This document shows positions 1-64,000 of a stretch of 64,000 bases of DNA, one piece after another; within the stretch, counting starts at the first letter, position 1, and every line of letters begins with the position of its first letter. Below the pieces are notes generated by a model. The model saw only the letters and a list, made by a program, of their open reading frames with translations. It made no database searches and was not told where the DNA came from. Origin of the DNA: Escherichia virus TH47. The DNA lies in sequence record MT446416.1, one strand, 5' to 3'. Both the position numbers and the translations under genes were made by a program.

Positions 1-123
1 ACTGAACTCGTCATATTGGAACATTCCACCAAAAGGTTTAGGACTTCTAAACTCCTTTGCAATGCGATGAATGTTAGATGCAAATTCTAAAACACCATCG
101 TAATCATATTCTGTTGTAATCAT
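1..123 (-). CDS. hypothetical protein, 3' end truncated by window edge
   Basis: ATG at 121-123 (minus) overlapping stop of upstream gene (ATGA); reading frame MITTEYDYDGVLEF... runs off window start. Confidence 0.3.
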   Translation of the reverse strand, partial: MITTEYDYDGVLEFASNIHRIAKEFRSPKPFGGMFQYDEFS

Positions 124-602
124 AGACCATTTTTCTCCATGTACTCAATGATTTCATCTACGAAGTTTAAATCCATATAGAATCTATCATCTGCGTTATT
201 GAGTTCATCTTTAAGTACTGTAAAAATTGTAGAACTAAACACGATTCTCTCATTGTACAAAGTACTGTACTGGAAGAATTCTTCTTCTGATCTAACATTA
301 AATGTGTCATATTCATATTCATCATCATTAAATCTAGGATGATAGTACTTAAAACTATCAGATGTATGGAAACAATATGAGATAAAATCCCCTGATGGTG
401 CATCGTCAAGTACACGAATACCACAGAAATTCTCATCTGTAGTATGCAACAAATTGCTATTCATTGACAAATAATTTTTGTACGCATAAAGTGTGCATCG
501 TGGGAGAATTATATTCTCTTTAACTGTTACAAAGAACTTATGAAGTTTAATGATATTTTGTGCGATTTTTTGTGCATTGCTAAATGATAGGTCTTTGGAC
601 AT
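120..602 (-). CDS. FamA paralog (C-terminal E-E-x-F-F-Q-x-S module), function unknown
   Basis: 160-aa ORF; motif SEEEFFQYSTLYNE near C-terminus. Confidence 0.6.
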   Translation of the reverse strand: MSKDLSFSNAQKIAQNIIKLHKFFVTVKENIILPRCTLYAYKNYLSMNSNLLHTTDENFCGIRVLDDAPSGDFISYCFHTSDSFKYYHPRFNDDEYEYDTFNVRSEEEFFQYSTLYNERIVFSSTIFTVLKDELNNADDRFYMDLNFVDEIIEYMEKNGL

Positions 603-661
603 AGTGATATAACCCTTTACAATTAATATAAAGAGATTATATCACAAAGATTTGGAGGGTG

Positions 662-1213
662 TCAAGAGTTCTCACGAAGTTCTACCATTTCTTTCCATAC
701 TAAATGGTAATCTTCTAAGTCCAGATAGAAGTCTTCATTTAAGTGCTCATATAAGTACTTGTACATGAATAGTACACCTAAATTGTATTCAGTAGTAAGC
801 AATGATTGTTGGAAGTAGTTTTCTGCATTTAGTTCTATATCCATGAACTCGAATCTACCTAGACCTTTTAATGTACGTATCTCAACATGTGAAGTATCTG
901 TTTTACTGAAGCACATAAATCCACCTCTAAATTCGGGATCATATTCACATTCATACTGTGCACTGTTATTATAGAAATCTCTATTACCATCCTTATCTTT
1001 TGGATTAACAACAGATACGTGAAGGTAGTCATCTTTGTACATTGTACGTTCGGGCGTTTTCACGCATTTTAACTTATTTTCTTTAATGTACTTGATAATA
1101 TCAATTATATCTTGTGCAGTACTGATTGCTGCCTCAAATGTATCCAACTTAAGATGATTGTATAGAGTTCCCTCGTTCTTTATTTTATCTAACATAAAAA
1201 CCTCATAGTTCAT
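662..1213 (-). CDS. FamA paralog, function unknown
   Basis: ORF 662-1252; motif AENYFQQSLL; start moved to internal ATG 1213 to avoid 50-nt overlap (alternative start 1252). Confidence 0.5.
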   Translation of the reverse strand: MNYEVFMLDKIKNEGTLYNHLKLDTFEAAISTAQDIIDIIKYIKENKLKCVKTPERTMYKDDYLHVSVVNPKDKDGNRDFYNNSAQYECEYDPEFRGGFMCFSKTDTSHVEIRTLKGLGRFEFMDIELNAENYFQQSLLTTEYNLGVLFMYKYLYEHLNEDFYLDLEDYHLVWKEMVELRENS

Positions 1214-1541
1214 ACATCTTTGATTTGAATTGCATTGTTCCACCAACTTCACATGGATAATTTTCCATAATACGATTCAAAAGTATCTGGTACTGTTGTA
1301 GTACTTCAATTTCCAAATGTATACTACTATCCAGTACTAATGACTCCTGGAACAATTCACCTGTATCTAAACATGAAAAATCATTTATAGTTAGCATTGG
1401 CTTATCATTGGTACGCAATGTAAATGATTCCTCATTTCGGATTAATGTACAGAATTCATTATGTTTTCTGTTATAATCCATTTTAACCAATAATAACTTG
1501 GTGTGAGTTGCGTACATTATTTTTACTAATTCAGTCTTCAT
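1203..1541 (-). CDS. FamA paralog, function unknown
   Basis: 112 aa; motif TGELFQESLVLD. Confidence 0.6.
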   Translation of the reverse strand: MKTELVKIMYATHTKLLLVKMDYNRKHNEFCTLIRNEESFTLRTNDKPMLTINDFSCLDTGELFQESLVLDSSIHLEIEVLQQYQILLNRIMENYPCEVGGTMQFKSKMYEL

Positions 1542-1890
1542 AACGGAATAAAATTCTCCTGTACTGCTCCGGCTTAGTACTCAATCTCTTCACCGGATAA
1601 TTGTCGAAGATCCTTTTCATTTCTTTCTGGATTAAACAAAGAAAATCAAAATTGCAATAGTATTTTTTATCCCATACTAAACTTTCTTGAAATAACTCAT
1701 CTTCTTGCATTAGCGTAGTATCAATTGTATCTTCACGTGTATTTGAGTACGCTTCATGACATTGAAAACCATCTTCTGATAATTCTAATGTATATGCCGC
1801 CATTTCAAACATATCATCATTTGTCTTTAACGAAAGTAAACAACAAACGTATTTTTTCGTTGTGTAGTACGTAATACTAATGGTATTCAT
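1531..1890 (-). CDS. FamA paralog, function unknown
   Basis: 119 aa; motif EDELFQESLVWD. Confidence 0.6.
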   Translation of the reverse strand: MNTISITYYTTKKYVCCLLSLKTNDDMFEMAAYTLELSEDGFQCHEAYSNTREDTIDTTLMQEDELFQESLVWDKKYYCNFDFLCLIQKEMKRIFDNYPVKRLSTKPEQYRRILFRYED

Positions 1891-1895
1891 GGCAT

Positions 1896-7475: not shown

Positions 7476-7831
7476 TCTGGAATTCCTATATTGAATTTGT
7501 ATTCTTGATTAATACTGACATTGCCTTTATTCAAAGCAGCATACTCTTTTATTTCATTTTGTATAGCAATTACTTCTTCAAATGTACACAAGTACTTCTT
7601 ATCAAATACTAATGACTCCTGGAATAGTTCAGCGGCATCCAGTACTGTATAATCCGGCATATCCTGATGCGGATACTGTAATGAATTGTAATCAATGAAT
7701 GTAAATTTACCCTGAGTGTAATGAATGTACTCATTTGCACTGTGCATTAAATCACCTTTGTTTAAATTACAAAAGTACTGAAAACTGTTCTTAAAAGAAT
7801 GTACTGATATTACAAAATCAAATTCCATCAC
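7472..7831 (-). CDS. FamA paralog, function unknown
   Basis: motif AELFQESLVFDKKYLCTFEEV. Confidence 0.6.
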   Translation of the reverse strand: MMEFDFVISVHSFKNSFQYFCNLNKGDLMHSANEYIHYTQGKFTFIDYNSLQYPHQDMPDYTVLDAAELFQESLVFDKKYLCTFEEVIAIQNEIKEYAALNKGNVSINQEYKFNIGIPE

Positions 7832-8204
7832 TCTTCCCTAGATTGAAATGATTACTAAAATTAATTTCACCAGTTTTACACCATTTATCTATACATTCCC
7901 TGTGAATGCATTTAATTCTACGCTGGATTTCAACAATCTCTTCTAATGTACAGATGTACTTCTTGTCAAATACTAATGACTCCTGAAATAGTGCAGCATC
8001 ATCCATTAAGGTATAGTCCAGCATATCGGTTGCTTTACAACTAAATCCAGTGCCAAGATCCATTAAATAAAATTGTGAATTCCAGAACTTTATAACCTTG
8101 CCCCTTGTGTAGTTTAAATCACCTTTGTACAAATTACAACACGTAATCAACTCACCCGTGTACATCCATGTCCCTATACAAAATTCTTTATATTTTATTT
8201 CCAT
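7818..8204 (-). CDS. FamA paralog, function unknown
   Basis: motif AALFQESLVFDKKYICTLEEI; start placed at internal ATG 8202-8204 (MEIKYKEF); upstream extension looks non-coding. Confidence 0.5.
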   Translation of the reverse strand: MEIKYKEFCIGTWMYTGELITCCNLYKGDLNYTRGKVIKFWNSQFYLMDLGTGFSCKATDMLDYTLMDDAALFQESLVFDKKYICTLEEIVEIQRRIKCIHRECIDKWCKTGEINFSNHFNLGKSDGI

Positions 8205-8618
8205 AATAATCTCTACTGTAATTAATAAGGTAAACTCCAATATAAGGAGCACGTTCGCGGCGGGGTATTTTTTTTTGTTTAAGGAAACATGCCCTGTACT
8301 CTGAAAACACATTTTAAAACTTTATATTAAACATATACCTTAACATGTTTTTCAGCGAAAATTTTTTTACCCCCCCCTCCTGTGGCCTGTGAAAACGAAA
8401 CGTCTCTATTTATTCAGCCTAGAAAGCTTGATTTCTTCAATCCTTTTCATCGCACAAAGCCTTAGACTCGTCTTCTCGTATATATATTCAATACTCGTTG
8501 TACTGCATTATCTGTATTATCTGTAACTGCAATCTGAACCAAATATGTATCCTTCAAAATCGAATCCATCATGTATTCAAAACCTTTCACACTATAGCAA
8601 TACACCACTTCCGGCTCT

Positions 8619-8822
8619 TCAAACGTAATCATAATTCCAATCTCCTATCCCATCTAACCTTCTAATATATCTTGCGTAAATTATTTCGAAATATCTGTGC
8701 AACGAAATTACGGATTGCTCATAATCAGCATTCCTGTACATTGTGCATGTAAGAAAATCATTTAAACCGTAATCTAAACTGCACTCCAACTTCTCCTTTG
8801 CAACATCTCTAAAATTATTCAT
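8619..8822 (-). CDS. hypothetical small protein
   Basis: 67-aa ORF after a 300-bp intergenic region. Confidence 0.35.
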   Translation of the reverse strand: MNNFRDVAKEKLECSLDYGLNDFLTCTMYRNADYEQSVISLHRYFEIIYARYIRRLDGIGDWNYDYV

Positions 8823-8975
8823 AATATGTCCTCTGTACAGCGTAGGTGTACTGTGAACTCAGCACCGTTAATATGTAATTTATATTATAAGCACGATTTC
8901 CTCGTTGACTAGCATGACTGGAATAAAGAATATTGTCCACATATGCATCGAACTGTTCTTCAAATAGCTCTTTCA

Positions 8976-9530
8976 TCAGCACCCTTTAATAACTTTCGAA
9001 ATGTAATCTTCTAATACACCAATGTTCTTTGTATTCGTTCGAACTAAAAGATAATTTAAATCCTCGAACTCCTGTGCATAATGCTTAACAGCGTACATGC
9101 ATCGTATTTCAAAATCTGTATAGACCATTTTGTACTGAAATAACATCTCTTCTGAAGCCTCTAAAAGCTCCATAGCTTGTTCTGTATTAAACTTAAAGGG
9201 ATTCTGTACTGATGAACAAAAACACCTGTGTTCGTTCGTCAGTACACCCTGTGATAGATATAATCCTGTACTACCATCTTGTGTTGATACCGAATTAAAA
9301 CCATTACTTGAAACCATTAAATCTGAACTCAATACAAATAATAATTTATCTTCCTTATGAATTAATAAATCTGACTTCAGGGATTTTATTCCTGTACTGG
9401 TTATATCACCTATACTAAGATTGTCACTGAACTTCTCAGCGTTGTTCGCAATGCTCTGGACAAGATTTTTTAATCTCTTAATGGCACTTCTGTCTTTTTC
9501 TAATGTATCTAATAAACTCATTGAACTCAT
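8976..9530 (-). CDS. FamA-like protein
   Basis: motif SEEMLFQYKMVYTD; start at internal ATG 9528-9530 (MSSMSLLD). Confidence 0.5.
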   Translation of the reverse strand: MSSMSLLDTLEKDRSAIKRLKNLVQSIANNAEKFSDNLSIGDITSTGIKSLKSDLLIHKEDKLLFVLSSDLMVSSNGFNSVSTQDGSTGLYLSQGVLTNEHRCFCSSVQNPFKFNTEQAMELLEASEEMLFQYKMVYTDFEIRCMYAVKHYAQEFEDLNYLLVRTNTKNIGVLEDYISKVIKGC

Positions 9531-9540
9531 TGTACTTTCC

Positions 9541-9885
9541 TTACATATTTGTACCGAACAAAACGGAACTTTGAATGCCATTAATCGACACTTCATGTAC
9601 ATATATATTTTGTCTGAATACCTGAAGCAATTGAACTAAACTTTGTTGCATAATAATATGCATCGCTACATTATCAAAGGCCGTTTCGTATTGGAATCGT
9701 GCAGCTTCATCTTCTATGAAATTCGGAACTTGGACTGGATTCTCAAAATTTGTCCTTGTACTGAACTGCACATCATTGTCCTGTACCTTAATACCATATG
9801 CATTATCATTGTCATCAACTACATCAAATTCAATTAAACTACCATCACTTTTTATGTTTACCACACAAACCGAAAATCTACTCAT
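9541..9885 (-). CDS. FamA-like protein
   Basis: motif DEAARFQYETAFDN. Confidence 0.5.
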   Translation of the reverse strand: MSRFSVCVVNIKSDGSLIEFDVVDDNDNAYGIKVQDNDVQFSTRTNFENPVQVPNFIEDEAARFQYETAFDNVAMHIIMQQSLVQLLQVFRQNIYVHEVSINGIQSSVLFGTNM

Positions 9886-10397
9886 AATCCTATTTCCTTT
9901 AAATCTTCCAAAAATGTTTCATAATCACTTAAGGAAAAAAAGATATCCGTATCGATGTTCGCATCTAATACATTATACAAATTCTGCATCTGTAACACAT
10001 CAGGAGCATCAATCAAAGATTGCTGAAAATAGGCAGCTTCATCTTCCAATATATCTCTGAATGTTCTCTCTCGTACTCTGTGGTGTACTGAACCGAACAA
10101 TGTATTATCCTTGAGCATTGGTAGGTATCGGATGTACATGTGTTCTCTTAGCTCAGAACTGATGGAACCCCTGAACTGTAACACGTATTCGAAGCACATA
10201 GCCACATCTTGAAGATAATTAGCACTGTAATTATTGCTGTAAACAATCTTATGACTTCTGAACTCATCATCATTCCTGAACCAATTGTCACCTACTTTTG
10301 TGTACTTATGACTAAGCAATCCACCCTCTAACGCTTTGATGATCTTCAAAATGTTGTACCCATACTCATATGATGTATTGTACTTGTGCTGATACAT
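9882..10397 (-). CDS. FamA paralog, function unknown
   Basis: motif DEAAYFQQSLIDAPD; start at internal ATG 10395-10397 preceded by GAGG; track N-terminus is Cys-rich low complexity. Confidence 0.5.
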   Translation of the reverse strand: MYQHKYNTSYEYGYNILKIIKALEGGLLSHKYTKVGDNWFRNDDEFRSHKIVYSNNYSANYLQDVAMCFEYVLQFRGSISSELREHMYIRYLPMLKDNTLFGSVHHRVRERTFRDILEDEAAYFQQSLIDAPDVLQMQNLYNVLDANIDTDIFFSLSDYETFLEDLKEIGL

Positions 10398-10413
10398 ATG
10401 TGCCTCATCTACC

Positions 10414-10608
10414 TCATTTGGTGTTAAAATATTCACTGAAATGATTATAACACAAAAGCACCACGATGTTAAGCACTCTGTTGTCAAAATCATCTTGTGA
10501 TGCAGGATGCAATGACGCATTGATGTTAAAATTCACTATATCATTGTGGAATTGGTATGTGAACAAATCAAACTTCGTATGCCTTTGTTGGATATCATAA
10601 GCGTTCAT
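10414..10608 (-). CDS. hypothetical small protein
   Basis: 64-aa ORF starting 2 nt after stop of upstream gene. Confidence 0.35.
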   Translation of the reverse strand: MNAYDIQQRHTKFDLFTYQFHNDIVNFNINASLHPASQDDFDNRVLNIVVLLCYNHFSEYFNTK

Positions 10609-10609
10609 A

Positions 10610-11218
10610 TTATATATTCAACCCTTGAATGCAGGAAATAAATTCTTTGTATACATTTTCAGGTAAAGCTCTACTACCATAAAGAACACTAAATTCAGGT
10701 AACATATTCGAAATCTCTTTCGCTAAATTTATTTCATCCCTGAACATTTGCACAGGCATGATATCCTGTACCAATGATAACTGAAAGAAAAATGATTCAA
10801 TATCTTCATGTATCTCTGAATTTAAATAAATCTCTTCTGGAAACTCTTCTGTACTGTAATAATAAAATACGTCAATTCTTTTATCATTATTATTCACAAG
10901 AGGTAAATTTCTTTCGTCTCTCTTATTAATATTTGTTTTCCATGACTCAATGTTATTCGGAACCCAAAACTCATAAGGTGTCTTCTCTCCTGAAATATTA
11001 TCCAGCTTCAATCCATAATATTCACCTTCTCCGTACTTTTGCTTCAAAACAATACCTGCACTACTAATGTTTACAATGTACGGATCAACAATCCCCTCTG
11101 CGGTAAAAGGAATATTTAACTCTGAACCTTCAGGGTACTTAGCATTGAATGCATCTAATGCTTTACTTAGCACTGGAATTGCACTTGTACTGTACTTCAT
11201 TAATTGGTCTATGTTCAT
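10610..11218 (-). CDS. FamA paralog, function unknown
   Basis: motif ESFFFQLSLVQDIM. Confidence 0.6.
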   Translation of the reverse strand: MNIDQLMKYSTSAIPVLSKALDAFNAKYPEGSELNIPFTAEGIVDPYIVNISSAGIVLKQKYGEGEYYGLKLDNISGEKTPYEFWVPNNIESWKTNINKRDERNLPLVNNNDKRIDVFYYYSTEEFPEEIYLNSEIHEDIESFFFQLSLVQDIMPVQMFRDEINLAKEISNMLPEFSVLYGSRALPENVYKEFISCIQGLNI

Positions 11219-11781
11219 TTTAATTCCCCTGTAATCATACTGATATTTGAACGATACATATCGTACACTGTACTTTCTTTCTTGTGCACAATGAAATCAT
11301 AAAGATCAACGAATGCAGAAATAATAATCTTGAATGATTTATTTGGGTACGTCCCAAAATCAACTGTACTCAATTTTGCAACGAGCATAACAACAAAGAT
11401 TTCTTCTGGACTATGCAATGTACTGTACTGAAAATATTCCTCAGCACTCATGGCACTTATTGCATTTATATCTTGTGTTTGTAATGTAATATTAAGATAT
11501 TCAAAAATAGAATAAAACTCTGATTTTGTTTGTATTTTGTATTTTGTTTGTATTTTGTATTTGTCAATTGGGGTATCTCTCATGAACCATAAACGATCTT
11601 GTTCATAAAAAGGAATGATTGAATTTGGGGAAGCCAGAAATACTTCTTCTCTATCAATATCTTTTAACTCAATTTGCATACCGGATGAATTGGCAATAAT
11701 TAATTCATGAAAAATATAATGAACCTTATGTACCATCTCTTGTACTGAATTGAAATCATCTGGTATTTTAAAATTTTCCAT
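11215..11781 (-). CDS. FamA paralog, function unknown
   Basis: motif AEEYFQYSTLHSPEE. Confidence 0.6.
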   Translation of the reverse strand: MENFKIPDDFNSVQEMVHKVHYIFHELIIANSSGMQIELKDIDREEVFLASPNSIIPFYEQDRLWFMRDTPIDKYKIQTKYKIQTKSEFYSIFEYLNITLQTQDINAISAMSAEEYFQYSTLHSPEEIFVVMLVAKLSTVDFGTYPNKSFKIIISAFVDLYDFIVHKKESTVYDMYRSNISMITGELK

Positions 11782-11856
11782 AGGTATCTCCTTAAAAAAT
11801 GATTACATATTGTACCATGCATTTGTACTCGTGTCAAACGAAAAAAAGCCCATATC

Positions 11857-12354
11857 TTACGATACAGGCATGTTTATTTGAATTTCATTGTACAAATCAT
11901 CAATATATAGACATGAAAAAGATACACTATCTTTAACTATATTGTTGTGATAAAGCATTTTAAACACAATATAGAAAAATAAATCAATATCATCATGTAC
12001 TAAATTCTGCTGGAACCACCACTCTTCTGTTAAATCTTGTGCATTAAAATCATCAGGAACTTCAATGAACGACATATCACCATCTTCTTTGTACTCAAAC
12101 CACATGTCGTCATTCGGATAACGTTCATGCTTCTCTGGGTAACAATTGGTGGGATTAAATGCTAAAATATAAAACGCCGTCGAAGAATATTCTTTATTTA
12201 GAAATGAATTATTCCACACCTGATACCTTTCACCAACATCAAACTCTGGTGCTACTGATTTTATTGCACATAATGTACTGTATATTGTTTCTATCTTGTG
12301 AACAAATTTAAAGGCAGCATCTAAACTAAACTCTAAATCATACATGTACTGCAT
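11857..12354 (-). CDS. FamA paralog, function unknown
   Basis: motif EEWWFQQNLVHDDID. Confidence 0.55.
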   Translation of the reverse strand: MQYMYDLEFSLDAAFKFVHKIETIYSTLCAIKSVAPEFDVGERYQVWNNSFLNKEYSSTAFYILAFNPTNCYPEKHERYPNDDMWFEYKEDGDMSFIEVPDDFNAQDLTEEWWFQQNLVHDDIDLFFYIVFKMLYHNNIVKDSVSFSCLYIDDLYNEIQINMPVS

Positions 12355-12674
12355 AAAATTACCTCAACTAAAGCAAGGACTGTATTGAATTCCAAATTAC
12401 TTGTAATTCCTTGAAGGTACATGTACTTTGCTACTACATATTTCTGTACTAAATTATAATTTTTAAATTTCTCAAAATTGTAATTTAGAACAAAATCTGT
12501 ACTCAAAAATAACTTATGCATCTCTAATGCACTTTGATAATATTGGTACAACTCACTGATATCAATACTGGTTAAATTATATTGTTCATATCTATGATAC
12601 GGGATGGCTTCAATTTCAATACTATAAAACCATTCTCTTAACTTATTAATATCAAATGTATTATTCAGCTTCAT
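12333..12674 (-). CDS. hypothetical protein
   Basis: 113-aa ORF, no family motif seen. Confidence 0.45.
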   Translation of the reverse strand: MKLNNTFDINKLREWFYSIEIEAIPYHRYEQYNLTSIDISELYQYYQSALEMHKLFLSTDFVLNYNFEKFKNYNLVQKYVVAKYMYLQGITSNLEFNTVLALVEVILCSTCMI

Positions 12675-13245
12675 AACTCAATACCTCCATTAAGCACTCA
12701 TAAACACCATCAATCGCATAAGCACAAAAATTGAAATTAATTTTGTGATTCTTGTGTAATGGACTATTGTGTACTGTACTAATAAGGACATTATAAAACA
12801 ACAAACGCACTGGTACAAGCATTGAACCTTGGAAAAATTCTTCCTCTGATTTATATGTATTGTACTCTATTGCTTTGTTCGTTTCTTTATCATATTTTAC
12901 CATTACTAACGGGGTATTTTTATTATACCATGCGTACTCTAAATCATTATTTCCAATAACAGCACCAGGGGAGAAATCCAAAAGACCAATAACACTACTT
13001 GCATTTGGTGTATATGGTGTATTGAATCGTTTATCAAAATGACTCGTGCACGCAATATGTGAATTAAAATCAGATGGTTTAAACCCTATGCACGCGTTAA
13101 TTATTCTTGTATATGGTTTTTTATTATGTGCTGCTTTCTGGGCATTATATAAGGCTGCAACAATACAAGCTAACTTTTGCCCCATAAGGATTGCATTAGC
13201 GTAGGTGTACTGAATATCATTGCTGGTACGGTACTTCGAGGTCAT
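12661..13245 (-). CDS. FamA paralog, function unknown
   Basis: motif EEEFFQGSMLVP. Confidence 0.55.
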   Translation of the reverse strand: MTSKYRTSNDIQYTYANAILMGQKLACIVAALYNAQKAAHNKKPYTRIINACIGFKPSDFNSHIACTSHFDKRFNTPYTPNASSVIGLLDFSPGAVIGNNDLEYAWYNKNTPLVMVKYDKETNKAIEYNTYKSEEEFFQGSMLVPVRLLFYNVLISTVHNSPLHKNHKINFNFCAYAIDGVYECLMEVLSYEAE

Positions 13246-13528
13246 AATATTTCCTTTGCCATATCATGGGCTTAAAATCAATAACAGCTTTCTGTATCTT
13301 TTTTAATAATAAGACATCATAACCACCCGTGTCAATCACTAATTGCTGTTGGAACAATTCTTCATCGGATAATGTATTGAAATCTACAAAATAATCTGTA
13401 ACTATCGAATCATTTAAATGTGCCATGTACCAACCTGAACTTCTTGAATAAATCAAATTCCACCCATCGTCATCATCTTCTAATTCAACATAAATCATAT
13501 CTGGGGTATACATCATTTTATACTTCAT
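13217..13528 (-). CDS. FamA paralog, function unknown
   Basis: motif DEELFQQQLVIDTGG. Confidence 0.6.
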   Translation of the reverse strand: MKYKMMYTPDMIYVELEDDDDGWNLIYSRSSGWYMAHLNDSIVTDYFVDFNTLSDEELFQQQLVIDTGGYDVLLLKKIQKAVIDFKPMIWQRKYYDLEVPYQQ

Positions 13529-14024
13529 AACTATATCCTTGCATCAAAATATCATAAACGTTTGAAAGGTACGGAATTTTGATATAAAATTTAAAACCCT
13601 TAATTAAAGGATTCGCGTACAATGAACTGAATAACTTTAGATAATGTATTTGACGAGGACTGTATAATAACGATTTCTGAAATAATTCAGAACTACAATC
13701 TGAACTAATATCAATTAAATCAATTCGTGCTTCTACTTCATCATTTTGTTTCAAATCATAAAAGAAATAATCGTTTGTGTTGACCCACAAATACCCTTCA
13801 CTATTTTCGTATATAACAGGAGATGCTTGTTCTGGATTGCCTTGGGCAAATGCTGCAAAACAAACTTTTGCATTACTTTCATCTTTAAACAAAAACGATA
13901 ATTTATCATATCTATCTTCTATGCGTAAATCACCTATATAAATGTACTTATACATAGAATGATTATTCTTGAGCATAAGCATTACTGTACTAATCTTGTG
14001 TGCTAATAATTCTATCTCATTCAT
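13518..14024 (-). CDS. FamA paralog, function unknown
   Basis: motif SSELFQKSLLYSP; N-term MNEIELLAHKIST and C-term LMQGYSYEV identical to 14096-14650. Confidence 0.6.
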   Translation of the reverse strand: MNEIELLAHKISTVMLMLKNNHSMYKYIYIGDLRIEDRYDKLSFLFKDESNAKVCFAAFAQGNPEQASPVIYENSEGYLWVNTNDYFFYDLKQNDEVEARIDLIDISSDCSSELFQKSLLYSPRQIHYLKLFSSLYANPLIKGFKFYIKIPYLSNVYDILMQGYSYEV

Positions 14025-14039
14025 ATATTATTACCTATT

Positions 14040-14105
14040 GATGGATGCATCATCTTCTAATTCAACATAAATCATATCTTGGGGTATACATCATTTTATA
14101 CTTCA
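14040..14105 (-). pseudogene. duplicated fragment of the 5' end of gene 13217-13528
   Basis: ~65 nt near-identical to 13480-13545 with a 1-nt indel; part of a tandem duplication. Confidence 0.35.
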
Positions 14106-14650
14106 TAACTGTATCCTTGCATTAAAAGATCATAAACTACATGGACTAAATTTAATTGAATATAAAATTTTAAACCTTTAATTAATGGATTCAAATGCAT
14201 TGTACTGAATAACATTAGATACATCATCTCATGCGGTTTTGTGATTAATGATTTTTGAAATACTTCAGCTTCATCATAAGGGTCTATGAACTGAAATTTG
14301 TCTTCATCATAATTTGTATTGGAATGCTGATATATAAAATAATCATCATTGGTATTGTACCACAAATACCCTTCGAATCCTGTACTAACATCTTTGGTCA
14401 ATGGGGATGCTGATACTGGATTTGAACTGATTAATGCACCTACATCAACAATCCCCGTTGTATCATATTCGATTTCATCATCAATGTCAATATCAATGTA
14501 TTTCCTTGCGATATCTGCGTTTATGGACAAATATAAACTACCACCTGTCCTCTGACTCAGGATTCCATCTATCTGCGATATAGGATGGTTGTTATTGAGG
14601 ATAAGCATTATTGTACTAATCTTGTGTGCTAATAATTCTATCTCATTCAT
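14096..14650 (-). CDS. FamA paralog, function unknown (recent duplicate of 13518-14024)
   Basis: motif AEVFQKSLITKP; shared N- and C-termini with 13518-14024. Confidence 0.6.
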   Translation of the reverse strand: MNEIELLAHKISTIMLILNNNHPISQIDGILSQRTGGSLYLSINADIARKYIDIDIDDEIEYDTTGIVDVGALISSNPVSASPLTKDVSTGFEGYLWYNTNDDYFIYQHSNTNYDEDKFQFIDPYDEAEVFQKSLITKPHEMMYLMLFSTMHLNPLIKGLKFYIQLNLVHVVYDLLMQGYSYEV

Positions 14651-14658
14651 AATTTACC

Positions 14659-14835
14659 TTATGGATTCGGGTGCAATAAATGATCTTGATAATTTAAATG
14701 TTCTATTGTAACTAATGAAAGATAATAATTGTAATTATCTATACCACCCTTTAAATGTATATTGTAAAACATCTTGATACTTACTAATAAAGAATCATTT
14801 AAATCATTTATTGCTTTTGTATTAACGTCTTTCAT
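14659..14835 (-). CDS. hypothetical small protein (58 aa)
   Basis: manual translation MKDVNTKAINDLNDSLLVSIKMFYNIHLKGG...; below ORF-track length cutoff. Confidence 0.3.
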   Translation of the reverse strand: MKDVNTKAINDLNDSLLVSIKMFYNIHLKGGIDNYNYYLSLVTIEHLNYQDHLLHPNP

Positions 14836-15032
14836 TAATGTTCTTCTCTTAAAAAACGCTTAATGGCACAATCTAAATAAAAATCATAATACATCATATC
14901 TCGATTCTTAACCCATACACAATAATCTGCATTAATATTTCTTAATAATATATTCATATTATAATCTTCACTCCCTAATCGTGCCATTTGATAGGATACT
15001 CCTTCCCTTGCACTACATAAGATATAATCCAT
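14835..15032 (-). CDS. hypothetical small protein
   Basis: 65-aa ORF. Confidence 0.4.
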   Translation of the reverse strand: MDYILCSAREGVSYQMARLGSEDYNMNILLRNINADYCVWVKNRDMMYYDFYLDCAIKRFLREEH

Positions 15033-15364
15033 CCGTAATGAATAGGACTATTCTTGTCTCCTTTTGGAATAAAATATAAAGATGTACTGGAATTATAACT
15101 GAATAAATCATTATTGTCAAATGTAAAATGAGATAACGTTATCTTCCTTGAACTTGGACTAATAACATTCTTAACACCGAACACTGTATCTTGATATTTC
15201 TCTGAAAATTCAAACAATGCATCTGTAATTAAATCATTGAATTCTATATATAATGGTTTAAAAGAACCATCCTTATCTTGGAACTCCTTATATAAAGAAC
15301 TTCTGGTATTCAAAAGAAATATTACTTTTTTAAGATCCTGAACTATTTCTGGATTCATATTCAT
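14975..15364 (-). CDS. hypothetical protein
   Basis: 129-aa ORF; start uncertain. Confidence 0.45.
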   Translation of the reverse strand: MNMNPEIVQDLKKVIFLLNTRSSLYKEFQDKDGSFKPLYIEFNDLITDALFEFSEKYQDTVFGVKNVISPSSRKITLSHFTFDNNDLFSYNSSTSLYFIPKGDKNSPIHYGWIISYVVQGKEYPIKWHD

Positions 15365-15623
15365 TTATCTCATTCATCTCATTCTGTAACTTATGCATCA
15401 AAATTTGTATATTAATTTTTTTTCCAAGGTGATTGAGAAATTTCTGTACCATTTCTTCTTGTACTGATGTACCAAGATAAAATAACATATTAAATTCCGA
15501 TAATCTCAGAGCAAAATCTTCCTCTCCCCCTCGTAAACAAAAATCCCTGTACTTTGATGCATACAAATAACGGTTTATTTTTTTGTACATTTGGGTCTGC
15601 ATTGTATCTCCTTTTTCAAACAC
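15330..15623 (-). CDS. FamB-like small protein
   Basis: motif FYLGTSVQEE. Confidence 0.5.
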   Translation of the reverse strand: MFEKGDTMQTQMYKKINRYLYASKYRDFCLRGGEEDFALRLSEFNMLFYLGTSVQEEMVQKFLNHLGKKINIQILMHKLQNEMNEINEYESRNSSGS

Positions 15624-15787
15624 CTTATTAGATTATCAACGTATTGGTCCTGTACTATTGTCCCTAGATAAAATGATACTTCGAACTCTGCAAATTTGAT
15701 ATTAAAAGGATCTACATATACATCTTTAATAAACTCTTTGTACTTCAACAAATATTCATTAGGTAAATTCTTATATATCGATTTCAA
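15575..15787 (-). CDS. FamB-like small protein
   Basis: motif FYLGTIVQDQ. Confidence 0.5.
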   Translation of the reverse strand: MKSIYKNLPNEYLLKYKEFIKDVYVDPFNIKFAEFEVSFYLGTIVQDQYVDNLIRCLKKEIQCRPKCTKK

Positions 15788-16082
15788 TGATCCTCCCTGA
15801 CATACCTTGTATTAGCTTATCATACATATCGAGCATAACTTTTTGTATATTAATTAATACTGGCATCGTGCAAATATCAATGTCGTATATTAAGCTGTAC
15901 TGGAATAATTCCTCTTCCTGCATTTGTACTAAATTAGGTAAAAGATAATTGTCTGCCTCTTCATCCTGGTACTTGAAATGCATAACACCATTCGTTTTGT
16001 ACAATAGAATGTCAATATCACCCAATTCATAGGAATAACCAAAAATACATATACTCGATGTTTTTGCTATATTAAATTTCAT
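15771..16082 (-). CDS. FamA paralog, function unknown
   Basis: motif EEELFQYSLIYDID. Confidence 0.6.
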   Translation of the reverse strand: MKFNIAKTSSICIFGYSYELGDIDILLYKTNGVMHFKYQDEEADNYLLPNLVQMQEEELFQYSLIYDIDICTMPVLINIQKVMLDMYDKLIQGMSGRIIEIDI

Positions 16083-16091
16083 ATTATTCTC

Positions 16092-16415
16092 TTATATGTG
16101 GAATTCACATACGTGTTGAACAAAATTCTTTGGAAGATGACAATGTGATATCATCTGCTTTTGTACTTCCTTCATATCTTCGAATGTAAATCCTAAAGAA
16201 TCATCATGTACTAACAAGTACTGAAACTCTTCTTCTTCAGAGATAGAACATAAATTCGGTACTGAAATTGTTTTTGTTTTTCTTGCACCCAATTTCCAAT
16301 GAAAAGAATTATCACATTTTCTGTACTCAAATATCTTCAACCCAGAACCCGTATTAAAATCAGCTACTACAATGTAACAAGAATTCTTACGTACAATACA
16401 ATTGAACTTACGCAT
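16092..16415 (-). CDS. FamA paralog, function unknown
   Basis: motif EEEEFQYLLVHDD; start at ATG 16413-16415 preceded by GGAGA. Confidence 0.55.
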   Translation of the reverse strand: MRKFNCIVRKNSCYIVVADFNTGSGLKIFEYRKCDNSFHWKLGARKTKTISVPNLCSISEEEEFQYLLVHDDSLGFTFEDMKEVQKQMISHCHLPKNFVQHVCEFHI

Positions 16416-43690: not shown

Positions 43691-43691
43691 A

Positions 43692-45311: not shown

Positions 45312-45321
45312 AGTATTCTCT

Positions 45322-45914: not shown

Positions 45915-45915
45915 A

Positions 45916-46128
45916 TTAGTGCTCGATTAATAGGGTAAGGATGTAATAGTATTGCATACTTTCTACCCCTTGTAAAGCATTTCTTATTTTATTATTCCTG
46001 TACGAGTTCAAGAGTTTAGGACAATGTTTGAGGTTTATATAATTATTTTGTGTATACAGTAGGCTTTCTCGTAGACCTTTTGTTGGTAGTGCATCGATGT
46101 AGTACTGTTCAATGTTCATAGTGTTCAT
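45916..46128 (-). CDS. FamC-like small protein
   Basis: N-term MNTMNIEQYYIDAL. Confidence 0.45.
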   Translation of the reverse strand: MNTMNIEQYYIDALPTKGLRESLLYTQNNYINLKHCPKLLNSYRNNKIRNALQGVESMQYYYILTLLIEH

Positions 46129-46352
46129 AGAGCTACCAGTACTAAGATTTTTGATAATTGTTTATTGCTATCCCCGCAGATGTTGCTGTGTAAAATACTC
46201 GCGGTGAGGGTATCAAGTGCACTGTTCAGCATAAGGTTACATCCAGTACTGTTATGTGTTTTTAGCTCTATCAGCCACGAACTATCCGCGAGAAACTTCG
46301 CGTACTCTAGTTCAGTTAGAGTATTGATGTAGTACTTAAGTGTAGTTGTCAT
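46125..46352 (-). CDS. FamC-like small protein (first gene of the array)
   Basis: N-term MTTTLKYYINTL. Confidence 0.45.
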   Translation of the reverse strand: MTTTLKYYINTLTELEYAKFLADSSWLIELKTHNSTGCNLMLNSALDTLTASILHSNICGDSNKQLSKILVLVAL

Positions 46353-46455
46353 GTACAGTTCTCCTTATATTCCTTCTATAGTACACCAGTACTGAAAGGA
46401 TGTCAAGGGTTTTGTTTATGGGGTAAATATGATATAATGAATAAAGGAGGGAAAT

Positions 46456-61659: not shown

Positions 61660-61728
61660 GTATTCATCCTCTCGTTTCGATGAAATGATTATAGCAAAAA
61701 GGGCTGACCGAAGTCAACCTTTTTCTTA

Positions 61729-63243
61729 TTATTGTTTTACCCCGCCCCACTTTTCATAGATTGCAATAATCTTATACAAGTTTGTGATGTTAGTTGTTTC
61801 CGTGTAACCATCTTTCATTTCATTTTTGGTAAGTACACCTTTACCAAAAATCCTCTTACACTCCTGTTCTGCTGACCTACAACTTTTGGGAGTGCTGAAA
61901 TGATAATACAACATTGAAGAAACTTTATATATACATTTATTGTCTTGGTGCTTCTGGCGGCGACCATGAACCTTTTCAATTCCATATTTCAATGCAATAG
62001 GTAACTCACCATCATAGATCACATGAATGTATGCAAATTGTTGATTATGATTAGAACATTCGGGGCAACCGGAACCACCAAGGTGAGCATTTGGAGTTAT
62101 TTTGAACTCACCATGTTCGCTACATTCAACCTTAACTAATTTATGTGCATTCACATAATTCGTTTTAGGATATGTGTACTTCCCATTATGTACTTTAGAT
62201 GCCTTTTCAATAAATTCAGGTGTACTAGAACGTTCACATCCTGAACATTTAGAACAACCATTTTTTTCATGTAGATGGTGTGTTGGTTGCTGCGTGAACA
62301 CACCATGTTCTTTACAAACAATCGATACTTTAGTTTTTAAGTTTTTATATTTAACTAAAGAATAATCATATTTGTCTCCATGTATTTCATGTGCTTTTTT
62401 GATGAACGTTTCGGTAGTTAACGCCATCTTTCCACTACACTCTAAACAACCATTGCCAGCCACATGTTTACTGGCAAGTTGCTCAAAATCACCATGTTCT
62501 GGACATGTAATTATAACTTTTCCACGTCCATTTATATAGATAGTTTTATCATATGAATATTTGTCACCGTGAACTTCTTTACATTTTTTGATGAAATCCG
62601 GGGTGTCTTTATATCTATACGTACCACTACATTTAGCACATTTAAAACCACTTAGGTGGTTTGCTGGGGTTTGTTCAAAATCACCATGTTCTTTGCATGT
62701 TATTGTAACTTTGGTTTTTGAGTTGATGTACACAACTTTATCGTATGTGTACTCAAAATTATGTTTAACATTTGCCTTCATGATAAAGTGCTCATTCGTA
62801 GAAACTCTTCCCAAGTGTACAATTGAACCGTCTTTATTCATCTTAGTGCATAAATTACATCCACGTTTTTTTCTTAAATGATCACTAACTCTTTTCTCAA
62901 AATCACCATGTTCTGGACATGTTATAATTACTCTAGAAGAATTAGAAACATCATCTTGTACCTTATCATAAAGGTACACATCACCAAAAATAGCACGAGA
63001 CTGTTCGATGAATTTAGCTTTACCCTTTCGAAAGTGTAGTCCATTTTTTGTATATCTACATTTTTTGCAGCCAGATGACCGTAAATGAGTTCCAGCAATT
63101 TGTTCGAACTCACCATGTTCTGGACATGTAATAATCACTGAGGTTCTTGAATTAACATAAACCACTTTAGTATAATCGTACTTAAAATTATGCAATTTAT
63201 TCGCTTGTTTTACAAACTCTTCTTTATTCATTGCGACTGGCAT
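61729..63243 (-). CDS. multi-zinc-ribbon protein (6-7 tandem CxEHGxF...HL...GCxxC repeats), possible nuclease
   Basis: repeats ITCPEHGEFEQ...; C-terminal VIY-N9-YGI...RR loosely GIY-YIG-like (weak); start MPVAMNKEE with same upstream context as denV. Confidence 0.5.
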   Translation of the reverse strand: MPVAMNKEEFVKQANKLHNFKYDYTKVVYVNSRTSVIITCPEHGEFEQIAGTHLRSSGCKKCRYTKNGLHFRKGKAKFIEQSRAIFGDVYLYDKVQDDVSNSSRVIITCPEHGDFEKRVSDHLRKKRGCNLCTKMNKDGSIVHLGRVSTNEHFIMKANVKHNFEYTYDKVVYINSKTKVTITCKEHGDFEQTPANHLSGFKCAKCSGTYRYKDTPDFIKKCKEVHGDKYSYDKTIYINGRGKVIITCPEHGDFEQLASKHVAGNGCLECSGKMALTTETFIKKAHEIHGDKYDYSLVKYKNLKTKVSIVCKEHGVFTQQPTHHLHEKNGCSKCSGCERSSTPEFIEKASKVHNGKYTYPKTNYVNAHKLVKVECSEHGEFKITPNAHLGGSGCPECSNHNQQFAYIHVIYDGELPIALKYGIEKVHGRRQKHQDNKCIYKVSSMLYYHFSTPKSCRSAEQECKRIFGKGVLTKNEMKDGYTETTNITNLYKIIAIYEKWGGVKQ

Positions 63244-63298
63244 TGTATTCATCCTCTCGTCTTGATGAAATAATTATAGCAAAAAGGGCTGACCGAAG

Positions 63299-63712
63299 TC
63301 AACCCTTTTTTCTTTCAATCAAACATAGTCTACCAGAATGTACCATGCGATGGTGATTAGAACAAAGAATCATACACTTTCGAATTTCATCTTTGATAGA
63401 TTCTCGACTTTTACTGAACATAGAACTTGGTGTATGTTCTTTGGTATTAGGATCAAGATGGTGAAAGTCTAAACATTCTGGATACTTCATCATACAAATA
63501 CTACAACCATAAAATGATTTAACTCTGGTCATGAAATCTTTATTTTTTCTTTTGATTTCTTCAAGTTTTTTGACCTCAGTTTTTTTATTTCTGGTTTTCT
63601 TACTGGTAATATTTCTACAATCGTTGCATGTATTTCTATGTTTCCCAGTATCACTTCTTATACCAAATTCACTAATGTTTTTTTCAATATTACATGTAAT
63701 ACACTTCTTCAT
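63299..63712 (-). CDS. HNH endonuclease
   Basis: Cys pairs plus DFHHLDPNTKEH...CSNHHRMVH HNH motif. Confidence 0.65.
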   Translation of the reverse strand: MKKCITCNIEKNISEFGIRSDTGKHRNTCNDCRNITSKKTRNKKTEVKKLEEIKRKNKDFMTRVKSFYGCSICMMKYPECLDFHHLDPNTKEHTPSSMFSKSRESIKDEIRKCMILCSNHHRMVHSGRLCLIERKKG

Positions 63713-63724
63713 TGTTTAATCCAT

Positions 63725-63994
63725 TTATTCAACAATACCCAACTTCACAATCTCATACCCGTCCAGATAGCCGTAGTAACACTCAGGTGTTTCATAAGAT
63801 GAACCATCATGGATGCCCTGGCATTGACTTTTGGAATTCTCAAGCAATCGTTGCAGTACTGATACGTCATCATGAACGTAATACAAGTTAGCATATAGGT
63901 CAGTTACAATACAGTACTCCAACATGTCAAATGTATCAATCGAAATTTCAACCTTAGCAAATCGTTTCTTTTCTTTATTACACAATGCGTACAT
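63725..63994 (-). CDS. hypothetical protein
   Basis: 89-aa ORF near window end. Confidence 0.4.
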   Translation of the reverse strand: MYALCNKEKKRFAKVEISIDTFDMLEYCIVTDLYANLYYVHDDVSVLQRLLENSKSQCQGIHDGSSYETPECYYGYLDGYEIVKLGIVE

Positions 63995-64000
63995 ATTAAT

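Follow-up and report, generated by a model that had tools for sequence, protein, structure and literature searches.

The hexamer AGTACT is a DNA-level signal that is maintained by selection across the genomes of RaK2-like jumbo phages: its enrichment is independent of coding, it is strictly palindromic, and its sites are conserved, evenly spaced, spread through the clade and placed at defined positions in early promoters. In our best reading, which we hold tentatively, AGTACT may be a clade-specific tag of phage DNA to which a conserved dimeric protein, encoded by the phage, binds and that also serves as an operator of early promoters.

Results

The window, that is, the whole stretch of 64,000 bases that was analysed (from an Asteriusvirus-type jumbo coliphage, GC 34.9%), includes an early region of about 18.5 kb that corresponds to the terminal repeat. 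AGTACT occurs 269 times in it (1..64000), compared with expectations of 21.5, 20.7, 47.3 and 105.5 under Markov models of order 0, 1, 2 and 3, respectively, and the over-representation claimed in the original prediction is therefore stronger than was stated there (269 versus about 21). When all 4,096 hexamers were ranked, the three most enriched were GTACTG, CAGTAC and AGTACT, and the preferred form of the site was CAGTACTG, found in 65 of the 269 sites where 0.7-7.2 copies were expected. With the window divided into coding and intergenic DNA by our own ORF calls, 181 sites were coding, compared with 58.5±6.1 under within-gene synonymous-codon shuffling (300 shuffles, maximum 75) and 23.6±4.5 under codon-order shuffling, and they were distributed over codon phases 0/1/2 as 73/46/62. 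The intergenic DNA, 9.8 kb in all, contained 86 sites, compared with 3.3-4.0 (order 0/1) or 12.1 (order 2) expected, which gives densities of 9.1 per kb for intergenic and 3.3 per kb for coding DNA. The excess that had been claimed for both coding and non-coding DNA thus persists in each against shuffled and Markov backgrounds, and because it remains when codon usage and dinucleotides are modelled, and all three phases are used, the enrichment is not accounted for by coding, codon usage or dinucleotide composition.

The consensus is an 8 bp palindrome, hAGTACTd, outside which there is no sequence information. At the position 5' of the core, C is preferred (44-50%) and G avoided; at the position 3' of it, G is preferred (47-52%) and C avoided, and each of the two avoided bases is present in about 8-9% of sites. 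These preferences are symmetric and the two sides are independent, as expected of a twofold-symmetric reader on duplex DNA. Since no information extends past ±1 of the hexamer, AGTACT is not a dispersed repeat, and since single-mismatch variants at the inner positions are not enriched, its recognition is strict. The form GAGTACTC was found in 0 copies in the window and in 6 of 977 sites in the related genome fEgEco12. When the palindromes were masked, 5-mers that retain one end (AGTAC[^T] and [^A]GTACT) were still about 2-fold enriched and showed the 5' flank preference of the palindrome, whereas GTAC without both end bases was not enriched (1.12-fold). Many other palindromes have been wholly eliminated from the phage genome, for instance GCGC (0 of 215 expected), CCATGG (0 of 50) and CTGCAG (0 of 43).

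The unique genome of fEgEco12 contains 977 AGTACT sites versus about 111 expected, and samples of RaK2, GAP32, CBB, Munch and fHe-Yen9-04, all of the RaK2-like clade, were 6–11-fold enriched. Structural-gene regions were enriched in every other clade genome sampled. In contrast to the phage density of about 2.8 per kb, E. coli has 0.06 per kb (3 sites in a 50 kb sample of K-12), and the unrelated coliphage phi92 avoids AGTACT (1 versus 15 expected). That the trait is clade-wide though the hosts differ points to a conserved phage factor. Outside the terminal repeat, coding and intergenic DNA are equally dense in sites (2-3 per kb), whereas in the terminal repeat of fEgEco12 the densities are 11.9 per kb intergenic and 4.0 per kb coding; AGTACT is densest in the terminal repeat of CBB, too.

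Between the window and fEgEco12, 88.8% of AGTACT sites were kept, compared with 74.2% of adjacent control hexamers. Across genera, at 57-72% protein identity, approximately 6-60% of the sites lay at exactly orthologous nucleotides, where chance would give about 0.01-0.05 shared sites per pair. These comparisons indicate that the sites are under purifying selection. Losses and gains of sites showed no excess of C-to-T changes: among 21 single-base differences at sites, 5 were C-to-T or G-to-A, which is a small sample and about what is expected for transitions at two of six positions. The sites are also more evenly spaced than random ones. At 60-330 kb of fEgEco12, the coefficient of variation (CV) of the gaps was 0.878 versus 0.999±0.039, and the largest gap, 1,976 bp, was shorter than the 2,276 bp that marked the 5th percentile of simulations; in samples from other genera the CV was below 1 in six of six (combined z = -3.2).

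The equivalent of the direct terminal repeat (23461..41970, minus strand), whose boundaries were set by matching the experimentally defined repeat ends of fEgEco12 (PMC13070987), carries early genes and 123 AGTACT sites, or 6.6 per kb compared with 3.2 per kb elsewhere in the window. The highest density outside the repeat is found in the unique DNA that adjoins its end (41971..46400, 39 sites in 4.4 kb), and a like pattern occurs at 345-353.7 kb of fEgEco12. Genuine Chi sites cluster in the terminal repeat, near the physical DNA ends. Many of the early genes have a sigma-70-type promoter cassette upstream, and the intergenic regions of the repeat are made of families of duplicated cassettes with AGTACT at fixed places, so that the promoter placements, being partly inherited by cassette duplication, are not independent events. 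For example, the cassette at 31270..31315 (minus strand) reads AGTACT-A-TTGACA-(16)-TATAAT; another AGTACT stands one base upstream of its -10 element, the two sites start 22 bp apart, and a near-identical copy lies at 31604-31650. The cassette at 37390..37435 (minus strand), a member of repeat family D1 (16 copies), reads AGTAC-TTGCAA followed by AGTACTG-TATAAT, and the last T of AGTACT doubles as part of the -35 element. In the plus-strand promoter at 38697..38725, TTGACA-(17)-CATAAT, the spacer ends in CAGTACTGG and the AGTACT site supplies the TG of the extended -10 element. Relative to the -10 hexamer, AGTACT starts at -7/-8 in 14 cases, at -17 in 4 and at -27 to -29 in 10; the sites border on one of the two promoter elements, -35 or -10, or overlap with it, and hardly ever fall in mid-spacer, and pairs are spaced by 11-13 and 20-24 bp. 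In another class of promoters, a different palindrome, TGACTTCGGTCA, lies across the -35 element, and operator-like palindromes are therefore a habit of these cassettes.

The sites that had been seen in promoter spacers are thus correctly described, and the tandem array that had been placed at 40381-40436 is real: it consists of four TCAGTACTATCWT units of period 13 at 40379..40433 (Tandem Repeats Finder: 4.2 copies, 97% matches), has AGTACT at 40389, 40402, 40415 and 40428, and is situated upstream of the repeat's first early promoter. The terminator stems are not supported, as a single terminator-like hairpin (41415..41448, minus strand) involves the motif, by way of two mutually complementary copies of CAGTACTG that are 26 bp apart, and terminator-like matches in the window were no more numerous than in shuffles (15 versus 11.7±3.7). 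The suggestion that AGTACT is a building block of regulatory cassettes holds for the minority of sites at fixed places in the duplicated promoter cassettes of the terminal repeat and fails for the rest, because two thirds of the sites in the window are intragenic, across all three phases, and structural-gene regions are enriched in every other clade genome sampled.

Two regions of the window, unmentioned in the original prediction, are free of AGTACT. Island 1 (7775..16216, minus strand, 8.4 kb) has 46 TGTACT versus 1 AGTACA on the plus strand; since its genes are on the minus strand, the sense strand reads AGTACA, and the orientation of the variant is fixed. The variant sites are distributed over the codon phases as 17/15/10, paralogy accounts for a few of them at most, the pattern is kept in SP27 and fEgEco12, and 82% of the variant sites are conserved versus 70% of local controls. 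Island 2 (18637..23592, minus strand) consists of tandemly arrayed paralogues from a 25-member family whose proteins are roughly 75 aa long; it contains 9 AGTACA, the majority of which fall at nearly the same residue (43-47) of the paralogues. In CBB, no oriented block adjoins the repeat, which indicates that the polarity is a property of the gene block and is not positional, as an origin would be. Beyond 20-60 kb of fEgEco12, the strand bias of half-sites is slight at most; outside island 1, half-sites leave the gaps between palindromes unfilled, and the spacing per strand is no more regular than with half-sites placed randomly.

Discussion

The original prediction had proposed a site for a phage-encoded DNA-binding protein, which fits the findings and is our best reading. 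We infer that this reader is a protein dimer, phage-encoded and repressing. It would be a conserved, twofold-symmetric, sequence-specific phage protein with AGTACT as its binding site, and it would occupy phage DNA roughly evenly along all 350 kb, marking it selectively since AGTACT is far rarer in the E. coli sample (0.06 versus about 2.8 per kb). In the terminal repeat, the extra sites lie against or inside the core of strong early promoters; binding there would overlap the sigma-70 contacts at -35 and -10, so that these sites could act as operators, in the simplest form by switching off early transcription. Short palindromes with a GTAC centre are bound by dimers in other systems: SlmA binds GTGAGTACTCAC (PMC3020112), while TGTACA is the target of YefM and GTAC cores are that of Phd (PMC1802561). 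YefM sites occur as pairs 12 bp apart that cover the -10 element (PMC1802561), and the AGTACT pairs, 11-13 and 20-24 bp apart, similarly adjoin -10 or -35. These operators differ from AGTACT, however, in having few sites per genome and longer flanking symmetry, compared with about 1,000 sites of 8 bp; furthermore, the flanks of SlmA sites are avoided around AGTACT, and no relatives of Phd or YefM were found in the fEgEco12 ORFs with approximate query sequences.

Some features sit less easily with a dimer. A strict 6-8 bp site without graded mismatch enrichment resembles an enzyme site more than a typical operator, the one-base asymmetric variant that takes the place of the palindrome in island 1, in a single orientation, is not accounted for by a symmetric dimer, and there is no explanation for a regulator's need of sites at even intervals within late structural genes.

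Alternatively, AGTACT might be read on one strand by a tracking or template-reading enzyme, such as a T4-type primase or a Chi-like nuclease attenuator, the palindrome being the cheapest means of putting the signal on both strands. This is unlikely in our view, although the oriented GTACTG and CAGTAC head the ranking of enriched hexamers, one-end 5-mers remain enriched after masking when GTAC without its ends is not, recognition is strict, the variant in island 1 keeps strictly to one orientation (46 to 1), and the spacing is even, with all gaps below 2 kb over 270 kb and equal coding and intergenic densities. In the primase version, GTACTG would combine one cryptic base with a primer template of five bases, much as in the T7 pentanucleotides (GGGTC, TGGTC, GTGTC), which are short, strict, strand-specific and likewise composed of a cryptic base and a primer template; GTACTG would suit a 5-nt primer of the T4 type. 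However, to our knowledge the T7 sites, unlike AGTACT, are neither enriched nor palindromic, and known primases specify just 2-3 bases. In the nuclease version, density peaks beside the physical DNA ends, where host Chi sites also cluster, would fit an end-entering nuclease. Chi (GCTGGTGG), which is read by RecBCD, is also an over-represented short motif that tags self DNA, and the oriented variant and the density near DNA ends recall its polarity and function; Chi is asymmetric, though, and its orientation tracks replication genome-wide, whereas AGTACT is palindromic with a bias confined to one gene block. We know of no cognate nuclease for AGTACT, and there is no AddAB- or RecBCD-like phage nuclease among the annotations. 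Neither version explains the fixed placement against -35 and -10, and the behaviour of half-sites outside island 1, which neither fill gaps nor space more regularly than random, their slight strand bias and the absence of an oriented block beside the CBB repeat all argue against one-strand reading.

The original prediction's other proposal, a modification enzyme, is weakened; it is improbable that AGTACT or its GTAC core is a target of phage DNA modification whose sites persist as protected or as an epigenetic mark. About 1,000 AGTACT sites tolerated in a genome purged of many other palindromes need protection or lack enemies, and the avoidance by phi92 suggests restriction pressure on AGTACT in E. 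coli, the source of the ScaI isoschizomer Eco255I. Furthermore, Asteriusvirus, RaK2 and GAP32 have a C5-methyltransferase, and AGTACT has one cytosine per strand. However, protection accounts for tolerance and not for 9-12-fold enrichment, conservation or even spacing, and the methyltransferase, which is DNMT3-like, has a target-recognition region that is minimal and a 50%-identical homologue in phi92 despite the avoidance there. The lack of excess C-to-T changes, the reported CpG methylation of RaK2 DNA (PMC3622015) and the cutting of fEgEco12 DNA as predicted by ten enzymes (PMC13070987) also count against modification. ScaI-type restriction-modification has the identical 6 bp specificity and a similarly enzyme-sharp definition, but phages normally avoid restriction targets, as phi92 does, whereas AGTACT is enriched 9-12-fold here. 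Slightly more doubtful still is that AGTACT is the preferred cleavage or binding site of the phage T4-type type II topoisomerase (subunits g418 and g419), with sites spread for supercoiling and decatenation and concentrated at the heaviest transcription. The twofold symmetry with a 4 bp core, the even spacing and the excess in a region packed with strong promoters would suit it, and cuts at A/GTAC/T would produce a 5' stagger of 4 bases, as is typical for enzymes of this kind; however, the type II topoisomerase and gyrase preferences known to us are long and degenerate, not strict hexamers, and neither the oriented variant of island 1 nor the exact abutment to promoter hexamers is explained. 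It is very improbable that the enrichment is a functionless by-product of codon or dipeptide bias, cassette spread, or mutation or repair bias such as that by which VSP repair creates CCWGG in E. coli. Cassette duplication does contribute to the excess in the intergenic DNA of the terminal repeat, and amino-acid sequence alone lifts the coding expectation from 23.6 to 58.5. Nevertheless, the excess over shuffled sequence is still 3-fold (synonymous) to 8-fold (codon order) and all phases are used, flanks are dissimilar beyond 8 bp, single-mismatch neighbours are not depleted (order-2 ratios 0.82-1.41), unlike under a repair drive, spacing is under-dispersed, and conservation exceeds the local background and extends across genera; a 5 kb tandem array of duplicated genes has 0 sites, and nothing therefore seeds AGTACT quickly. 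Least probable of all is binding by a host protein, for which SlmA, a nucleoid-occlusion factor, is the candidate: AGTACT is the central hexamer of its site (PMC3020112), and all clade hosts are enterobacteria. In fEgEco12, however, the full site has 0 copies and TGAGTACTCA has 2, the required flanks (G before, C after) are those that AGTACT avoids most strongly, GAGTACTC being so rare, and the host genome sample is itself very poor in AGTACT.

A parallel to AGTACT is HIP1 (GCGATCGC) of cyanobacteria, a highly iterated palindrome of cellular chromosomes with methylated sub-sites. Both are short, strict palindromes in many-fold genome-wide excess, in coding and non-coding DNA, clade-conserved and of unsettled function; AGTACT differs in that it is carried by a clade of virulent phages whose genomes are otherwise cleared of palindromes, in its additional sites at defined early-promoter positions and in having no known modification. 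The DNA uptake sequences of Neisseria (DUS) and Haemophilus (USS) likewise tag DNA as "self"; they occur about once per kb and are much less common in foreign DNA, more evenly spaced than chance, intragenic in all frames and able to shape protein sequence, but they are non-palindromic, 9-12 nt long and read by a competence pilus protein, whereas AGTACT is a phage palindrome of 6-8 bp.

Enrichment of AGTACT in the window

The original prediction held, by eye, that the palindrome AGTACT is over-represented in both coding and non-coding DNA, and exact counting bore this out. The window contains 269 copies, versus 21.5, 20.7, 47.3 and 105.5 expected under Markov models of orders 0, 1, 2 and 3, respectively. 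No hexamer in the window is more enriched than GTACTG, CAGTAC and AGTACT, and the preferred flanked form CAGTACTG occurs 65 times versus 7 or fewer expected. When the window was split into coding and intergenic DNA by our own ORF calls, 181 sites were found inside genes, compared with 58.5±6.1 after shuffling of synonymous codons within each gene and 23.6±4.5 after shuffling of codon order, which rules out codon or dipeptide bias as the cause. These results show that both synonymous choice and amino acid sequence have been bent towards AGTACT, and the coding sites occupy all codon phases (73, 46 and 62 sites in phases 0, 1 and 2). The claimed concentration in intergenic DNA was equally evident (86 sites in 9.8 kb versus approximately 4 expected), and the tandem array was recovered at 40379-40433 with a period of 13 bp, but the association with terminator stems found no support in the window. 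No Rfam match to a known RNA family was obtained anywhere in the window. A many-fold excess of a strict short palindrome over Markov and codon-aware backgrounds is a HIP1-like property.

Reference genome and terminal repeat

By megablast, the window falls within the Asteriusvirus jumbo coliphages (PBECO4, 121Q, phAPEC6, G17, CMSTMSU and fEgEco12), with a mosaic identity of 87-97% to their records and no identical record. The whole genome of fEgEco12 (374,733 bp), for which direct terminal repeats of 20,993 bp were experimentally confirmed (PMC13070987), was used as the reference for comparison. In the alignment, the window is inverted relative to fEgEco12, and 23,461-41,970 is the equivalent of the terminal repeat, with small early genes on the minus strand, many of which have an upstream sigma-70-type promoter cassette. 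Positions 1-23,460 correspond to the DNA following the repeat and 41,971-64,000 to the far end of the unique sequence, including an array of seven paralogous RCC1-like genes on the plus strand (46456-55510; ~370-390 aa each). These paralogues are labelled "chromosome condensation regulator" in related records, a name that reflects the repeat fold and is not evidence for DNA binding. Cutting of the genome ends at AGTACT was rejected, as the repeat boundaries read ...CCCACTA/AGTAGGCAG... and ...GGTAACCT/TAGCGAC... (slashes mark the boundaries).

Distribution in the genome, the clade and the host

The fEgEco12 genome contains 1,115 AGTACT sites in total, or 977 per unique genome versus approximately 111 expected. 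Outside the site-free islands described below, replication, structural and accessory regions all have 2-3 sites per kb, and outside the repeat the coding density equals the intergenic density. Within the repeat there are 11.9 sites per kb of intergenic and 4.0 per kb of coding DNA, and the 8 kb of unique DNA adjoining the repeat has a density similar to that of the repeat. AGTACT is common to every RaK2-like jumbo phage genome sampled, with a 6-11-fold enrichment in the samples from other genera: 95 sites versus 8.5 expected in RaK2, 84 versus 12.4 in GAP32 and 65 versus 11.3 in Munch (40 kb each), and 81 versus 8.9 in fHe-Yen9-04 and 83 versus 10.7 in CBB (35 kb each). The densest AGTACT in CBB is also found in its own terminal repeat. 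Thus, as for HIP1, the motif is genome-wide, present in coding and non-coding DNA and common to a clade.

Only 3 sites were found in 50 kb sampled from E. coli K-12 (0.06 per kb), so that the phage, at 2.76 per kb, is ~45-fold denser in them. With its even spacing and its much higher density in the phage's own DNA than in foreign DNA, AGTACT behaves in the manner of an uptake-sequence-like self-tag. The unrelated coliphage phi92 (60-100 kb sampled) has 1 site versus 15 expected, which suggests that there is real restriction pressure on AGTACT in E. coli hosts. In phages, avoidance of short palindromes is to be expected, and the 354 kb of fEgEco12 contain no copy of GCGC (215 expected), CCATGG (50), CTGCAG (43), GCATGC (44), CGTACG (22) or about ten others; hexamer palindromes with zero copies number eight in the window and more than a dozen in these 354 kb. 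GCGC and several hexamer palindromes are likewise missing from the fHe-Yen9-04 and CBB samples. This loss of palindromes is extreme restriction-site avoidance, and it suggests that the phage DNA is largely unmodified.

Anatomy of the motif

Information is limited to eight positions and is close to zero beyond one base on either side of the hexamer. The core hexamer is invariant, with a preference for C and against G at position -1 and for G and against C at position +6; these preferences are symmetric, and each is statistically independent of the other. Of the 977 sites in fEgEco12, 221 are flanked by C and G and 6 by G and C. Since nothing outside the eight positions is informative, AGTACT is not a dispersed repeat of the REP or MITE kind, and the true repeats among its contexts are the terminal-repeat cassettes only. 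No depletion was seen for any of the 18 single-mismatch variants (order-2 observed/expected 0.82-1.41), nor any enrichment for those at the inner positions. Recognition is accordingly strict, without the signature of a repair drive, and a VSP-like process was ruled out because no one-mismatch precursor is depleted. After masking of the palindromes, the half-site 5-mers AGTAC[^T] and [^A]GTACT are still approximately 2-fold enriched with the 5' flank preference unchanged, and GTAC lacking both ends shows no enrichment. Paired AGTACT sites 11-13 bp apart also exist.

Conservation and spacing

Between the window and fEgEco12, which are 92.8% identical over aligned bases, 88.8% of AGTACT sites are kept versus 74.2% of neighbouring control hexamers, with an equal margin over the controls in coding and intergenic DNA. 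There is also turnover: 27 sites are intact in the window only and 18 in fEgEco12 only. In cross-genus orthologues of four large genes (57-72% protein identity), approximately 6-60% of the sites lie at the identical nucleotide, where chance would give approximately 0.01-0.05 shared sites per pair, and the density is held in orthologues where the positions differ. Furthermore, the gaps between sites in fEgEco12 60-330 kb are under-dispersed (CV 0.878 versus 0.999±0.039), short gaps are fewer than expected, and the largest gap is 1,976 bp, where the 5th percentile of the simulations is 2,276 bp. The CV of the gaps is below 1 in all six samples from other genera (combined z = -3.2). We consider it very likely that AGTACT is a selected, DNA-level signal that is read by a conserved factor of this phage clade.

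Islands without AGTACT

Two stretches of the window have no AGTACT. In the second (18,637-23,592), the motif is simply absent, and the stretch is a tandem array belonging to a 25-member paralogue family (PHROG 4148; ~70-90 aa), which lies mostly in one head-to-tail array at 17659-23364 with outliers at 3033-3224 and 15330-15602; paralogy is accepted as the explanation of this island. The first island (7,775-16,216) is of another kind, as its plus strand has 0 AGTACT, 46 TGTACT and 1 AGTACA, meaning that the sense strand reads AGTACA. These variant sites (5.5 per kb) are found in all three phases and in mostly unrelated genes, so that paralogy was rejected here. Since the islands recur in SP27 and fEgEco12, which were sequenced independently, an assembly or base-calling artefact was rejected; in both genomes, the pattern of the first island is kept, and its variant sites are conserved above the local background. 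The orientation bias is weaker across fEgEco12 20-60 kb, and elsewhere none was seen. The genes of the first island have no relatives outside Asteriusvirus in the phage collection or IMG/VR. CBB has no oriented block, which argues against a position effect beside the repeat, such as that of a replication origin. As the first island shows, almost the same word is read in these phages in an asymmetric way that depends on direction.

Promoters and cassettes of the terminal repeat

The intergenic regions of the repeat consist of families of duplicated cassettes, for instance 16 copies of a 63-nt unit, in which an A-tract, the -35 element, a 16-17 bp spacer, the -10 element, a hairpin in the 5'-UTR and the Shine-Dalgarno sequence follow one another. 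AGTACT starts at -7 or -8 relative to the -10 hexamer in 14 cases, at -17 in 4 and at -27 to -29 in 10, although these placements are not independent events because the cassettes are paralogous. It thus adjoins the -35 or -10 element, or shares a base with the -35, and almost never lies in mid-spacer; at CATAAT -10 elements, the site provides the TG of an extended -10. In the 16-copy family, AGTACT is conserved about as well as the -10 hexamer. Although it takes three registers in the cassettes, AGTACT is not itself a sigma-70 promoter element, given that two thirds of the sites in the window are inside genes and that intergenic DNA outside the repeat is no richer in it than coding DNA.

Possible readers of AGTACT

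The mechanism that we favour, while giving it somewhat less than an even chance, is a twofold-symmetric phage protein, as the candidate reader, which binds AGTACT and has an additional operator role at early promoters. Such a protein would occupy phage DNA selectively because AGTACT is so much denser there than in the host sample, would bind at roughly even intervals along the phage genome, and would act as an operator-binding factor at early promoters through overlap with the sigma-70 contacts. Among the fEgEco12 ORFs, phmmer with YefM and Phd sequences gave no match below E = 0.2, a weak test for a Phd/YefM homologue. A rather doubtful but more far-reaching reading is that AGTACT is a self-identification barcode, a word of 6-8 bp with a strict definition that is set every ~400 bp on both strands, by which a conserved phage machine separates phage from host DNA. 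In that case, the orientation-locked block of variants would imply a barcode reader sensitive to strand or direction. If true, this would be either an equivalent, encoded by the phage, of Chi or of uptake-sequence recognition, or a system for priming at specific sequences, and the reader would be something other than an ordinary transcription factor.

The remaining rivals are, in order of weight, a strand-reading enzyme, modification, topoisomerase II, a by-product and SlmA. An enzyme that reads one strand, such as the primase or a Chi-like nuclease attenuator, would best account for the oriented block, the strict recognition and the spacing, and the enrichment of oriented 5-6-mers would suit a primase site. 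However, it misfits the promoter placement as well as the failure of half-sites to make up for gaps between palindromes (outside the first island, no evidence of such filling was found), and we consider it unlikely. A polar motif of the Chi or KOPS kind was rejected because the main motif is palindromic and, in addition, because the oriented variants stay within 20-60 kb of fEgEco12, with no oriented block in CBB. That AGTACT is a modification target is improbable. A C5-cytosine methyltransferase of 286-297 aa is indeed found in Asteriusvirus, RaK2 and GAP32 (g455 of fEgEco12, L007:29943-30803; ORF194 of RaK2, L010:16708-17601; both positions counted within the named segment), with homologues widespread in unrelated phages. 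Yet this enzyme of the clade is of the C5, DNMT3-like type, its closest solved relatives by sequence being the catalytic domains of mammalian DNMT3A/B (E = 1e-23), before M.HhaI and M.HaeIII. The modification reading is further weakened by the report of methylated CpG in RaK2 (PMC3622015), by the phi92 homologue, which accompanies avoidance of AGTACT, and by the substitution spectrum. We see little chance that AGTACT is a topoisomerase II site, and it is very improbable that its enrichment is a functionless by-product. Binding by the host factor SlmA is the least credible of all: its full 12 bp palindrome GTGAGTACTCAC was found 0 times, and the flanks that it requires, GAGTACTC, are the most avoided combination (6 of 977).

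Relation to known systems and implications

Among known phenomena, AGTACT comes closest to HIP1, uptake sequences and Chi, from which it differs in being viral, in having a promoter-linked layer and in its oriented variant. A full-text literature search, with few subscription journals covered, found no description of the motif, and it is unmentioned in the genome papers of CBB, fEgEco12, Sharanji and RaK2. About a thousand conserved, evenly spaced copies in a palindrome-avoiding clade point to an unrecognised core function of this widespread group of jumbo phages, in which most genes have no assigned function. The motif bears on the shut-off of approximately 60 strong early promoters, on how these phages discriminate their own unmodified DNA from host DNA, and on the vulnerability of therapeutic Asteriusvirus phages to ScaI-type restriction. 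It also offers an experimental handle: an oligonucleotide of 8 bp can serve as bait for the reader protein, and synonymous recoding of the sites is possible.

Other features of the window

A second class of promoters has no AGTACT and instead carries the palindrome TGACTTCGGTCA, of the form TGAC-N4-GTCA, over the -35. The promoters of this family are strong and sigma-70-like (GGTTGACTTCGGTCAGCCC...TATAAT or TATTAT), with -35 elements on the minus strand at 63302, 61717, 61134, 58882, 33035, 28778, 26054 and 24950, and the palindrome may be the operator of a different regulator. Many early genes of the repeat (23461-41970) have a G+C-rich hairpin of the GGGGAAnnnTTCCCC type between promoter and ribosome-binding site. 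A repeated element with GCCCACCGGGTGCA is present at 37014-37067, 40644-40697 and 40837-40913, with similar copies near 24.87, 25.98, 28.70 and 32.98 kb; these elements follow closely on consensus promoters, in some cases on the plus strand where no ORF is obvious, and may be small RNAs.

The window contains ten E. coli Chi octamers versus fewer than 1 expected, all within the terminal-repeat equivalent; read on the plus strand, they are CCACCAGC at 24835, 26888, 28690, 29590, 30549, 31058, 35169 and 41374, and GCTGGTGG at 35231 and 41386. Eight of the ten have the same polarity as the early genes, and the repeat of CBB (9311-21020 of the sampled segment, L017) has 7 copies of GCTGGTGG. The Chi octamers in the terminal repeat probably protect the linear genome end against RecBCD. 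Finally, a degenerate array of approximately 12 copies of the 8-bp unit TAGCCGTC is located at 41064-41162, some 0.8 kb in from the left end of the terminal repeat, and may serve packaging or replication as an array of binding sites.
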